Source of the DNA: an uncultured Actinomycetota bacterium
Lineage (GTDB): Bacteria; Actinomycetota; Thermoleophilia; RBG-16-64-13
Assembly: GCA_963790415.1 (NCBI GenBank)
Contig: CAWBOK010000005.1
Coordinates: 75,223 to 139,222, forward strand
DNA: 64,000 bases
Direction: 5' to 3'
In this document: positions 38,295-49,768 of the stretch, one piece after another
Position numbering within the stretch: position 1 is the first letter of the stretch
Layout: each line of letters opens with the position of its first letter
Notes under the pieces: model-generated
Databases searched by the model: none
The model's input: the letters and a program-made list of their open reading frames with translations, nothing else
Told to the model about the DNA's origin: nothing
Translations under genes and position numbers: made by a program

Positions 38295-38354
38295 GTCGAA
38301 CGCCCGTCACCAGCGGTGCCGCACGGCGCCGTCGGCCGCATGCCGTTGTTAGGC
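38295..38354 (-). mobile_element. attC site (60 bp) directly after hsdR
   Basis: GCCTAAC AACGGCATGCGGCCGACGGCGCCGTGCGGCACCGCTGGTGACGGGC GTTCGAC; 7 bp from the hsdR stop. Confidence 0.75.
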
Positions 38355-38361
38355 GCCCCCT

Positions 38362-41300
38362 TCACGCGGCCGCCCACCCGCCGGACAGCAGCGCCGCCTG
38401 CTCCAGCACCGTCTCCGTCGCCTTCTCCTGCTTGTCCGGCGGATAGCCATACCGTCGCAGAATCCGCTTCACCAGCACGCGCAGCTGGGCGCGCACGTTC
38501 TCGCGGATAGTCCAATCGATGGTGACGTTGGCGCGCACGGTCCTGACCAGTTCCTGGGCGATGGCCCGCAGCGTCTCGTCGCCGAGCACCTTGACGGCGC
38601 TGTCGTTGGTCCCGAGGGCATCGTAGAAGGCAAGCTCGTCCTCCGACAGGTCAAGCGCCGCCCCCCGTTCGTTCAGCTCCCGCATCTCTCCGGCCAGCCT
38701 GATCAGTTCCTCGATCACCTGGGCGGCTTCGAGAGCCCGGTTCTGATACCGCCGGATCGTCTGCTCCAGCATCTCCGCAAAGGAGCGTGCCATCACGACG
38801 TTCTTCCGACCCCGGGCCTTGATCTCTCCCGCGAGCAGCTTGCGCAAGAGCTCCACAGCCAGGTTCCGCTGGGGCATCCCGCGCACTTCGGCCAGGAACT
38901 CTTCCGAGAGGATGGAGATGTCCGGCTTCGCCAGACCGGCGGCGGCGAAGATGTCGATGACACCCTCCGGCGCCACAGCGCGCGCGATGATCTGCCGGAC
39001 CGCGTGCTCGATGTCCGCCTCCGGCCGGGCATCACCGGGGGCCCGCTTGGCCAGCACCGCCTGAACGGCCTGGAAGAACGCCACGTCGTCGCGGATTCGG
39101 AGAGCCTCAGCGTGTGGAACGGCCAGAGCGAACGCCTGGGACAGCCCGCGCACCGCAAGCACGTACCGATCCTTGCCGTTCTCCTGCGCCAGGATGTGCT
39201 CTTGGGCGGCCGGCAGCAGACCGAGTCGCTCGTGCGGCGCACCGCTTACCCACCGCGATCGGTCGAAGCCGTGGAAGAGACCGCAGCACACTTCGTACTT
39301 CTCGAGCATCAAGGCGACGGCCTCATCCTGGTCCAACGCGGTCCACCCGGTACCGCCGCTCTCGGTGTAGGTGGCGAGCGCCTGCTTCAGCTCCTGCGCC
39401 AGGCCCAGATAGTCCACCACCAGCCCACCGGGCTTGTCACCGAATACCCGGTTCACGCGCGCGATCGCCTGCATCAAGCCGTGCCCGCGCATCGGCTTGT
39501 CGATGTACATCGTGTGCAGGCTCGGGGCGTCGAAGCCGGTGAGCCACATGTCGCGGACGATGACGAGCCTGAACGGGTCCTTCGGATCGCGGAAGCGGTT
39601 GGCCAGCGCCTCGCGCCGCGGCTTGGTGCGGATGTGCCGCTGCCAGTCGGCGGGATCGGAGGCGGCGCCGGTCATCACCACCTTGAGCGTGCCGTGCTCG
39701 TCGTCGGCACCGTCCCAGTCAGGCCGCAGCTCTGACGATCTCGCGGTACAGCTCCACGCAGATGCGCCGGCTCATGCACACGATCATCGCCTTGCCGTCC
39801 ATCGCCTCGAGCCGCTGCTCGAAGTGCTCGACGATGTCCTTGGCGACCAGCTCCAGCCGCTTCTGCGCCCCGACCACGGCCTCGAGCTGCGCCCACTTGG
39901 TCTTGAGCCTCTCCTTGCGCTCGACCTCCTCGCCCTCGGTGGCCTCCTCGAACTCGGGGTCGATGGTCGGCCGCTCGGCTTCGTCGAGGGCGAGCTTGGC
40001 CAGCCGGCTCTCGTAGTAGATCGGCACCGTGGCGCCGTCCTGCACGGCGCGCTGGATGTCGTAGACGCTGATGTAGTCGCCGAACACCGCGCGCGTGTTG
40101 GCGTCCTGCAGCTCGATCGGCGTGCCGGTGAAGCCGATGAACGAGGCGTGCGGCAACGCGTCGCGCATGTGGCGCGCGTAACCGTCGATGAAGTCGTACT
40201 GGCTGCGGTGCGCCTCGTCGGCGATGACCACGATGTTGCGGCGCTCGGAGAGCGTCGGGTATCGGTCGCCCTGGCTCTCGGGGAAGAACTTGTGGATGGT
40301 GGTGAACACCACGCCGCCCGCAGCCACGCCGAGCAGCTCGCGCAGGTGCGCGCGACTCTCCGCCTGGACCGGTGGCTGGCGCAGAAGATCCTGGCAACGC
40401 GAGAAGGTGCCGAAGAGCTGGTCGTCGAGGTCGTTGCGGTCGGTAAGCACGACGACGGTCGGGTTCTCCATCGCCGGCTCGCGGATGATGCGGCCGGCGT
40501 AGAAGGCCATGGTCAGGCTCTTGCCCGAGCCCTGCGTGTGCCAGACCACACCGACGCGCCGGTCGCCGAGCGCGCCGCCCGGTTTGCGGCCGGTGTCGTA
40601 GCGGTCCTGCGCCTCGGCGACGCGATCTGTCCGCGCCAGCTCCGCGGCGCGCAACGTCTCGGCCACCGCCACCTGCACCGCGTGGAACTGGTGGTAGCCG
40701 GCCATCTTCTTGGTGATGCAGCCGCCATCGTCCTCGAACACGATGAAGTCGCGGACCAGGTCGAGGAAGCGCCGCGGTGCGCACAGGCCCTCGATCACCA
40801 CCTGCAGCTCCGGCAGATGCGCGTCGGCCAAGGTCTCGCCCGCGATGGTCCGCCAGGGCTTGAACCACTCACGCCCCGCGGTGAGCGTACCCACGCGCGC
40901 CTCCACCCCGTCGGAGACGAGCGAGCAGCGCGTTCGGCCCGAATAGTGAGGGAATTTCCACCTTGTATGTCTGGAGCTGCTGGAAAGCGCTCCAGATCGT
41001 TGCGTTCTCGTCGGCGGCGTTCTTGAGTTCTATTACGACCAGCGGCAGACCGTTGACAAACAGCACCACGTCCGGCCGCCGCGAGTGCTTGTTCTCGACG
41101 ACGCTGAACTGGTTCACCGCCAGCCAGTCGTTGCCCGCCGGGTCGTCGAAGTCGATCACCCGCGCCTGCGCTCCGCGGATGTTGCCCTCGGCGTCGCGGT
41201 ACTCGACGGTCACGCCGTCGACCAGCAGGCGGTGCAGGGCGCGGTTGCGTGCGATGAGCTCCGCGCCTTCAGGACGCGTCAACTTGCGGAAGGCGTCGTC

Positions 41301-41501
41301 GAGGGCTTCGGCTGGGAGCGCCGGGTTGAGCCGCGCGAGCGCATCGCGCAGGCGCTGCGCCAGGACGACCTGTCCGTAGTCGTCACGCTCGGCCGCGGGC
41401 TCGCCGGGGGCGATGTCGGCGCCGTTCCGGACCTGCCAGCCGGCGCTTTCGAGCCACGCGAGGGCGGCCTGTTCGACGACGGATTCGGTGACGCCGCTCA
41501 C
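38362..41501 (-). CDS. hsdR: Type I restriction subunit R, split by two apparent +1 insertions (about 40921 and 39733)
   Basis: [15 protein letters not shown] nuclease motif, [33 protein letters not shown]; removing one base at each site restores the conserved text. Confidence 0.92.
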
Positions 41502-41746
41502 CCGATCACCTTCCAGTGTCCGCCTTTGGCGGAGCCGACCCGTACAAGCAGGCCTGAATCACGAAGTATCCGAATCGCGCGGTGGATCGCGCTCTCGGAC
41601 TTGTCCATGAGGGCTGCCAGTTGTGACACAGACAGATCTGGCTGGTCCTTGAGGAGCCGCAGGATCTCCGTCGGGGCTTTCCCTAGCGTTTCCCTGGCGT
41701 TTCCCTGGCGTTCCCCCGGCGTCCTCCCTGGCAATGTGAACGTCAT
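41498..41746 (-). CDS. Small winged-HTH protein (82 aa), possibly the remnant of a longer ATP-binding/Fic regulator
   Basis: [54 protein letters not shown]; GAGGGGG RBS; GTGA overlap with hsdR. Confidence 0.7.
41678..41721. repeat. Four tandem 11-bp units TT(T/C)CCC(T/C)(A/G)GCG
   Basis: TTTCCCTAGCG TTTCCCTGGCG TTTCCCTGGCG TTCCCCCGGCG. Confidence 0.85.
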
Positions 41747-49016: not shown

Positions 49017-49109
49017 GCGTTGCCTCCTCGGACAGTCTGCCGAATCCCGCCGCCGCGACCGGTTGGTCTTATGAACAATATCAGTCCGGTGCGACGGAAT
49101 GGACTCGGA

Positions 49110-49200
49110 CTACCGCTTGCCGCATTTTCGCGGTCCGGTGAGAACCACGACCGGACTGCGGGAGAGCGCCGTCCGCATCGCGTCGAGAAGGGCGCTTCAC
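49110..49200 (-). pseudogene. N-terminal stub of an AAA_14/DUF4143-type ATPase
   Basis: [25 protein letters not shown] then stop (degenerate GPRQCGKT Walker A). Confidence 0.55.
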
Positions 49201-49336
49201 CCCATCATCATGCGAAGAACACACCACGAGTATCCCGCATCGCTCACCTGGTTTTCGTGGTACGCACTTCAGGAGCGGCGCCGTAGTCCGGAGATTCGAG
49301 ACGCGGTTCCTGCTCCTAGTGCAGCGATCCCCGGTG

Positions 49337-49768
49337 TCAGACCTTCTCGGCGAACGCTTTGAATCGCTCCATCGTTCCGAACGACTCCTTCTTGAACGAG
49401 CCTTCGAGCAGTCCCAGGGCTTTGCGCAACCCTTCGAACCGGAACTCGTTCTCTGAGGTCCAGCGCGTGCTCGTGGGGGATTCAGCGGCGAACCGGTTGG
49501 CGTTGCGGTTCCACACACCGGGAGTCTCGTAGATGACGTCGAGCTCGTCCGGTAGGGCGTTCCGCTCGACCGTCTCGGTCATGCCGGTCACGCGGTGGCC
49601 GGCCCGCGTGGTGAGCTCGGCTTTGGCGCCTGTCTGCGCCTGCTCTCCGCTCACGAGCTGGTAGCACTCCAAACCTGGTTGCCACTCCGAGAAGTGCTCC
49701 GGATCGACAAACAGAGCGACGACCCTGTCGCGTGGGGCCTCGATGATGATCTCCTGCCTGTATCTCAT
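49337..49768 (-). CDS. SRPBCC family protein
   Basis: IIIEAPRDRVVALF.DPE...WQPGL; TMERFKAFAE. Confidence 0.85.
   Translation of the reverse strand: MRYRQEIIIEAPRDRVVALFVDPEHFSEWQPGLECYQLVSGEQAQTGAKAELTTRAGHRVTGMTETVERNALPDELDVIYETPGVWNRNANRFAAESPTSTRWTSENEFRFEGLRKALGLLEGSFKKESFGTMERFKAFAEKV

Follow-up and report, generated by a model that had tools for sequence, protein, structure and literature searches.

A Type I restriction-modification operon with nested defence modules ends in a conserved integron attC site in a probable actinobacterium

Type I restriction-modification (R-M) operons that hold extra defence genes among their hsd genes are known, as illustrated by the rlo genes of Campylobacter and by the immigration control region of Escherichia coli. 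To our knowledge, loci of this type have not been reported with an attC tail or within integron arrays. IntegronFinder groups attC sites into arrays with a default clustering distance of 4 kb, and clusters of attC sites without an integrase are said to have been described by Cury and colleagues in 2016 under the name CALINs. At least in the part of the survey by Darracq et al. (2024, 10.1101/2024.07.02.601686) that deals with them, defence systems in the cassettes of sedentary chromosomal integrons have no more than two components, small restriction systems of types II and IV prevail and long loci are absent. The same part of that work attributes the limit on component number and length to constraints on cassette recombination and cassette genesis. 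Here we describe a 64,000-nt stretch of DNA, called the window throughout (positions 75223-139222 of contig C5, in a 3.64 Mb genome of 66% GC assembled into 10 contigs), which holds a 10.7 kb phage-defence operon (38362-49016, minus strand) made of Type I hsdM, hsdS and hsdR with further modules nested among them, as annotated with Pfam and PADLOC. Directly after hsdR stands an attC site, designated X. The pattern reported by Darracq et al. is departed from here, where a conserved and recombined attC terminates a Type I operon with modules nested inside it.

We consider it likely that this operon is the cargo, or the remains of the cargo, of an exceptionally large multi-gene cassette that has its own attC on hsdR, at least 10.8 kb across the operon from any other attC. 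In the mechanism that we propose, an integron integrase would fold the bottom strand of the hsdR attC and recombine it with another attC or with attI. All DNA from the preceding attC to the hsdR attC would thereby leave or enter as a single circle.

The earlier note on this DNA had pointed to a GCCTAAC motif behind the hsdR stop as cassette-type spacing, and this observation holds. The stop codon (TGA) occupies 38362-38364 on the minus strand, and GCCTAAC (38348-38354) follows 7 nt downstream on the same strand. It opens the following site:

38295-38354, minus strand: attC X, consisting of R'' GCCTAAC, AA, L'' CGGCAT-G-CGGCCG, a loop, L' CCGCTG-GTGACG, GGC and R' GTTCGAC

The R'' box fits the consensus RYYYAAC and the R' box is one position off GTTRRRY. 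X thereby combines paired R boxes, L stems and a position directly after an open reading frame (ORF) on the same strand, and no remnant of any ORF other than hsdR was found between the hsdR stop and X.

Two covariance models were built from the attC family of this genome and its relatives. The first (R1) was derived from eight sites of this genome, namely two clear ones near the integrase remnants described below (71146-71205 and 69412-69472) and six more. These eight align with 7 pairs in the R helix and 12 in the L helix, with 85% of the cells paired and compensatory changes in 8 pairs. R1 detected the attC family in 18 of 61 related genomes at a cassette-like spacing of 0.5-1.1 kb; on X it gave 10.4 bits (E 1.2), and being too narrow it was replaced by a second model (R2). 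R2 drew on 61 sites, taken from the flank and from relatives, with candidate X and all sites of the window left out, and was run over the whole window with filters off. All of its top eight matches lie on the minus strand:

59923-60005, minus strand: attC, 66.6 bits (strong)
60484-60566, minus strand: attC, 40.7 bits (strong)
37787-37846, minus strand: attC, 36.7 bits (strong), the next one downstream of X
38295-38354, minus strand: candidate X, 22.0 bits, E 0.0025
55583-55683, minus strand: attC, 17.2 bits, E 0.041 (weaker)
23746-23816, minus strand: attC, 16.1 bits, E 0.077 (weaker)
37083-37170, minus strand: attC, 15.9 bits, E 0.087 (weaker)
27065-27159, minus strand: attC, 14.8 bits, E 0.17 (weaker)

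X was matched over its full length and ranked fourth behind three clear attCs. In the R2 alignment 16 of its 19 modelled pairs form (6 of 7 in R, 10 of 12 in L). On these features, X reads as a real, slightly eroded attC.

Several other searches gave little or no signal. The GCCTAAC motif is uninformative by itself (2 occurrences in the window against 2.7 expected by chance), and the free-energy fold of X is no better than that of shuffled sequences (z +0.7); at 66% GC neither motif counts nor fold z-scores were informative. A strict RYYYAAC...GTTRRRY search of the window returned no site because the sites of this lineage are off consensus. A home-made scan for R boxes and hairpins was flooded by palindromes in coding regions, nhmmer with two seeds recovered the seeds alone, a sequence-only hidden Markov model (HMM) reached E 0.19 on the 5' half of X, and Rfam had no match in the window. 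X has no T-tract, and a terminator scan found nothing.

The earlier note had proposed, as a check, to look for further attC-tailed copies of this operon, and the outcome was positive: the operon and its tail recur in strain contigs and in an unrelated metagenome-assembled genome (MAG), and the hsdR end with the attC in further metagenome contigs. Specifically, the junction made of the hsdR 3' end, a 6-7 nt spacer and the attC was found in 5 strain-level contigs, in the MAG (G085) and in 14 metagenome contigs. The strain-level contigs come from nine metagenome contigs that hold an exact copy of the 70-aa protein encoded next to X; the five compared as DNA are strain variants with 92-97% identity. 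In all five, hsdR is followed by the same attC, in some cases with better stems (CAGCGG/CCGCTG, CAGCAT/ATGCTG) and in two with a deletion in the 5' arm. In G085, a 10 kb contig (C60) reads hsdM-hsdS-KwaB-like-Abi_C-deaminase-hsdR-attC, with an intact hsdR (1124 aa) and a spacer of 7 nt; its attC scores 32.8 bits and is the sole R2 match in that genome. The MAG is labelled Sandaracinaceae, and the binning of C60 is uncertain. Metagenome contigs were also scanned with the junction pattern TGAAGNNGGCGYCTAACAAC, which retrieved 39 contigs. Fourteen of these show an HsdR C-terminus (67-86% aa identity) that stops precisely at the junction, followed by a canonical attC of 60 nt (GCCTAAC AA CAGCAT G CAGCKG ... 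CMGCTG ATGCTG ... GTTAGGC). A search of plasmids revealed hsdR homologues, none of them with this attC.

In an alignment of 20 junction sequences (A4), the hsdR end and the whole attC are conserved up to the GTT of R' (column 100). From column 101 onwards conservation is gone, and at least 12 different continuations follow. Pairing is found in 88.8% of the cells, six pairs show compensatory changes and a G between the L sub-stems remains unpaired; when the 3' partners were slid by 1-3 columns as a control, pairing fell to 22-49%. The sharp loss of conservation after GTT is the footprint that repeated integrase exchange at G|TT would be expected to leave. Judged from its sequence, the hsdR-attC junction is old, has been conserved as a unit and occurs in many environmental genomes that are not related to each other.

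What precedes the junction varies. In three metagenome contigs (L141, L167 and L173) the hsdR 3' piece alone precedes the attC. In three others (L142, L160 and L177), all of which carry further attCs, an hsdR remnant of about 25-100 nt follows a PLD-like gene within a multi-gene stretch of 5.5-6.5 kb between attCs. Since the same junction and hsdR remnants recur across contexts, the attC belongs to hsdR and does not stem from a replaced gene. In L141 (metagenome contig Ga0163151_10004129, 3195-4668) the 5'-truncated hsdR with its canonical attC abuts a 5'-truncated intI in the opposite orientation, an arrangement that resembles a rearranged integron platform.

HsdM, HsdS and HsdR are encoded together in the window, as expected of a Type I system (Pfam, PADLOC). 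The operon contains, in the direction of transcription:

47415-49016, minus strand: hsdM, Type I methyltransferase (Pfam N6_Mtase 352 bits and HsdM_N; PADLOC MTase_I 725 bits)
46167-47342, minus strand: Fic-domain protein, SoFic match (Pfam Fic_N and Fic; PADLOC SoFic 395 bits)
45722-46138, minus strand: HEPN-like NTase_sub_bind gene, partner of the MNT domain (Pfam PF08780, 108 bits)
44157-45725, minus strand: single ORF with an N-terminal MNT nucleotidyltransferase domain followed by HsdS (Pfam Polbeta and Methylase_S; PADLOC Specificity_I 287 bits)
42913-44145, minus strand: AAA_21 ATPase (PADLOC candidate HEC-01A, 538 bits)
42302-42997, minus strand: DUF4276 protein (PADLOC candidate HEC-01B, 272 bits)
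41498-42088, minus strand: winged-helix (ArsR/MarR-like) regulator (Pfam HTH_5/MarR_2), in a region partly common to the related genome G022
38362-41501, minus strand: hsdR, Type I restriction subunit (Pfam HSDR_N, SWI2_SNF2 and T1RH-like_C on three ORFs)

Comparison with two other loci (L059, a strain contig, and L140) revealed that the slot between hsdM/hsdS and hsdR (window 41591-46188) holds different defence modules in each genome: HEC-01 (AAA_21 and DUF4276), SoFic and HEPN/MNT here, a DUF1016/YhcG nuclease-like gene in L059, and a KwaB-like protein, Abi_C and a deaminase-HATPase protein in G085. The two-gene HEC-01A/B module (42302-44145) is missing in L059 and G022. These comparisons indicate that the operon is a carrier whose bay takes interchangeable contents. 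In hsdR itself, +1 insertions near 39732 and 40921 divide the gene over three frames, as judged by tblastn against the intact HsdR of G022, so that the intact HsdR frame required for restriction is absent here. Both insertions are missing in the relatives, where HsdR is intact (1069-1124 aa), and in the 92-97% identical strain contigs. The frameshifts may be a real inactivation or long-read assembly errors, and the same question applies to the intI fragments described below. We also observed that the C-terminal 439 aa of HsdR are 74-88% identical over Pseudomonadota, Acidobacteriota, Chloroflexota, Gemmatimonadota, Planctomycetota, Nitrospirota, Spirochaetota and others (loci L060-L139), which makes this R-M family unusually well conserved and widely transferred.

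The array around the operon is a chromosomal integron in decay, and its host is a probable actinobacterium. Almost every gene from about -17000 to +89000 in window coordinates lies on the minus strand. An IntI-type tyrosine recombinase adjoins the array, 33.5 kb upstream and just outside the window: the intI remnant (C5:147111-148051, i.e., window 71889-72829) matches TIGR02249 with 318 bits summed (cut-off 265), extends over several frames and contains two in-frame TGA codons. A second, partial copy of an integron integrase lies at C5:153013-153673, and both remnants are on the cassette strand (same-orientation arrangement). The local integrase is a pseudogene by its sequence and looks dead. 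Clear attCs were detected between and after the integrase remnants (window 77311-77411, about 75140-75225, 71146-71205, 69412-69472 and 65845-65929), and many attCs of the array are truncated or eroded, with half-sites visible at 36311-36349 and 61112-61156. Because intI is frameshifted, X lacks 3 of 19 pairs, hsdR has two frameshifts and no recognisable attC lies directly upstream of hsdM, the unit in this genome is probably frozen.

At the upstream end of the block, R2 revealed no recognisable attC between 38355 and 55583. The features of this region are:

49017-49116, minus strand: leader upstream of hsdM, about 92% identical to strain L059, with homology ending near 49116-49150 (blastn and global alignment)
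49260-49340, minus strand: hairpin after the stop of an SRPBCC gene, with arms GCACTAGGAGC / GCTCCTGAAGTGC
50397-50453, minus strand: possible eroded attC of a PIN toxin-antitoxin cassette, with AGCGAAC / GTTAGGC boxes 57 nt apart, immediately behind the stop of the PIN gene

The hairpin had been put forward in the earlier note as the other boundary of the cassette, a proposal that did not stand. It does exist as an inverted repeat, yet shuffled sequences fold equally well (z -0.9 and -1.1), a GTT-type R' box is lacking, neither R1 nor R2 matched it in local searches to E 5-10, and homology to L059 starts elsewhere, near 49116. Judged by these searches, it is not a recombination site. No homologues of the SRPBCC protein were found in 60 genomes of the family, and there is no exact copy on record. 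The site at 50397, which the same note had called a clear attC, does have the boxes; it scores below 9 bits with both models and is at best eroded, and what speaks for it is positional: the homologous PIN cassette of another genome (G031) has a good attC there (28 bits, R' GTTAGGC). The nearest upstream site with model support is 55583-55683, whose L stems are intact (CGGCAT/ATGCCG) and whose R boxes have decayed. The stretch between recognisable attCs thus measures 12.0 kb if the weak site at 50397 is counted and 17.2 kb otherwise.

Comparison with L059 places a replacement just upstream of the operon. Homology runs from 54625 to 51201, is lost, and returns near 49116, roughly 100 nt ahead of the start of hsdM. 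The swapped segment (49117-51200), between an aminotransferase gene and hsdM, holds a PIN toxin-antitoxin pair, two SRPBCC genes and the hairpin in this genome; its counterpart in L059 (3432-5336) holds Phd/YoeB, a 96-aa ORF and ParDE, with ParE ending 52 nt before the common leader. One breakpoint falls at a stop codon and the other about 100 nt before hsdM. Over 20 kb of L059, R2 matched the hsdR attC alone. The gene-level swapping upstream of hsdM may not be integrase-mediated.

A number of observations weigh against the operon being the cargo of a large cassette. Neither breakpoint of the swapped segment has a recognisable attC in either genome, and none was detected just upstream of hsdM here or in L059. 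Since hsdR 3' fragments precede the attC in several contigs, DNA upstream of the junction has evidently been replaced by routes other than attC x attC recombination as well. Eight family-level relatives carry the same operon (71-84% nt identity) with an intact hsdR, their homology to this locus ends exactly at the hsdR stop, and none of the eight has an attC there. Likewise, among the best 80 cross-phylum HsdR homologues kept (74-88% aa identity, from many phyla), one is followed by an attC (that of G085) and 79 are not. The attC-tailed hsdR is a minority state. In a tree of HsdR C-termini, a cross-phylum bush, this genome falls weakly with proteobacterial attC-less sequences and not with G085; forcing a clade of this genome, its strain variants and G085 cost 30.7 log-likelihood units, with a borderline p of 0.049 in the approximately unbiased (AU) test. 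As the gene tree does not join G085, a single origin of the junction rests on junction similarity. Identity to G085 in windows does not rise toward the hsdR 3' end. The junction may be old, with recombination of the hsd genes at a later time, or else the attC may have been acquired more than once. Finally, the E-values of R1 and R2, including that of X, are rough, and R2 missed some attC-like sites, such as one behind the HTH_3 gene in L054; R2 is therefore not fully sensitive, and the lack of a match does not prove the absence of an attC.

How much of the operon would move as one piece is where the explanations part. The strictest version takes the whole operon, together with about 100-135 nt upstream of hsdM and the attC at the other end (about 10.8-11 kb here), as one mobile cassette, excised and inserted as a single circle, whose upstream attC has eroded. 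It draws on the conserved hsdR-attC tail with its crossover signature, on the lack of any attC within the operon here or in G085, on the identical orientation of operon and cassettes, on the replacement of DNA upstream of about 49116 relative to L059 (PIN/SRPBCC versus YoeB/ParDE) with the operon kept, and on the visibly truncated or eroded state of many attCs in the array. Against it, a 5' attC was seen in no copy, the metagenome contigs all break inside hsdR and that of G085 breaks inside hsdM, the breakpoint relative to L059 is not at a G|TT box, and the published surveys, in the part that treats this matter, found cassette defence systems of two components at most and no long loci (10.1101/2024.07.02.601686). 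We hold this version as a possibility that falls somewhat short of probable. The broader proposition that a complete Type I R-M island (three core genes and the exchangeable slot, 8-11 kb) moves between phyla as a single cassette is put forward tentatively, and we would sooner doubt it than assume it. Of the cassette of about 11 kb suggested in the earlier note, the 3' end is supported and a unit bounded at 49260-49340 is not. Taken together, the cassette 3' end on this Type I R-M defence island is genuine, and movement of the whole operon as one cassette is plausible but short of probable.

It is unlikely, on the other hand, that the R-M island entered by ordinary recombination or insertion beside the attC of an earlier small cassette, leaving the hsdR spacing coincidental. 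The operons of the eight relatives, which lie in different attC-free contexts and whose homology ends exactly at the hsdR stop, would fit such an entry, as would the core-like GC content at third codon positions (GC3) of hsdM and hsdR (0.88-0.94, versus 0.72-0.85 in most cassette genes) and the existence of contigs with other genes before the same attC. Yet hsdR orthologues end 6-7 nt before this same attC in G085 and 14 metagenome contigs, no remnant of another ORF lies between the hsdR stop and X, and the differing downstream sequences argue against one clonal locus, so that the conserved junction largely refutes this explanation. The earlier note had framed it as an attC that belonged to a different gene replaced by the R-M block; the hsdR-attC pairs of the five strain contigs, G085 and the 14 metagenome contigs contradict that form of it, and where the upstream gene does differ, the attC keeps a short remnant of the hsdR 3' end. 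Least probable is that X is no functional attC and instead a chance GC-rich palindrome or terminator after hsdR, as its unremarkable fold, low R1 score, HMM result and off-consensus R' box could be taken to mean, against which stand the R2 match, the empty terminator scan and the canonical homologues, whose R and L stems are perfect, whose L sub-stems are separated by an unpaired base, whose pairs covary and which diverge precisely behind GTT; for the attC family this idea is already refuted, and X as a dead attC would fit a large multi-gene cassette whose remains persist in this genome.

Other features of the array were also recorded. The small cassette after X (37758-38182) contains a 70-aa ORF followed by a truncated 38-aa frame and is closed by the attC at 37787-37846. 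At the position of the 38-aa frame, three strain contigs (L055, L057 and L058) carry an intact 70-aa HicA toxin gene (Pfam HicA_toxin), and homologues of the 70-aa gene sit between attCs in three genomes (G007, G005 and G058). A 300-nt direct repeat with 86% identity (19510-19809 and 23724-24023) spans two gene 3' ends in the array, and its second copy overlaps the weak attC match at 23746-23816. Just downstream of the eroded attC at 55583-55683, a gene contains six tandem coding repeats of about 102 nt (54748-55456; 62-71% identity). Three more attC matches (R1 33-40 bits) were found far from integrase matches (G000:C3:537608-537671, C1:714391-714473 and C8:224107-224207), and parts of the window at 51-56 kb have 77-95% identical copies near the C1 attC (C1:709097, 730388 and 731960).

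Cassettes are thought of as small, and in this locus a three-subunit Type I operon that hosts further modules has a dedicated attC which recombined into many contexts. If the whole operon moves, integrons would traffic entire defence islands that standard detection settings would miss. Indeed, clustering at 4 kb would split this array at the R-M block, and such units would therefore be overlooked. Movement of the complete island between phyla as a single cassette, if true, would make this the largest and most complex cassette known by far, and the inferred limit on cassette size would be a detection bias rather than a mechanistic constraint. The locus also belongs to a rare set in which closely related operons exist with an attC (this species, G085 and metagenome contigs) and without one (8 relatives and 79 of the 80 best homologues kept). 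Such a comparison is what is needed to study how cassettes gain their attC, a long-standing question.

The locus shares features with several known systems. Like the rlo and immigration control region loci, it has hsdM and hsdR flanking a variable slot with different modules per genome. Like CALINs and decaying chromosomal integrons, it has heterogeneous and partly truncated attCs, frameshifted intI fragments and long stretches with no recognisable attC, and unlike CALINs it retains an intI remnant on the same contig. As in the defence cassettes described for sedentary (10.1101/2024.07.02.601686) and mobile integrons (10.1101/2024.07.02.601719), the defence genes lie in cassette orientation within an array, end in an attC with R''/L''/L'/R' that recombined at G|TT, and have toxin-antitoxin cassettes as neighbours. 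In contrast to the compact systems of those surveys, three Type I subunits and 3-4 further modules stand in front of the attC here, and in place of their Vibrio hosts the setting is a high-GC, probable actinobacterium, in which the mobility of the whole unit is putative.

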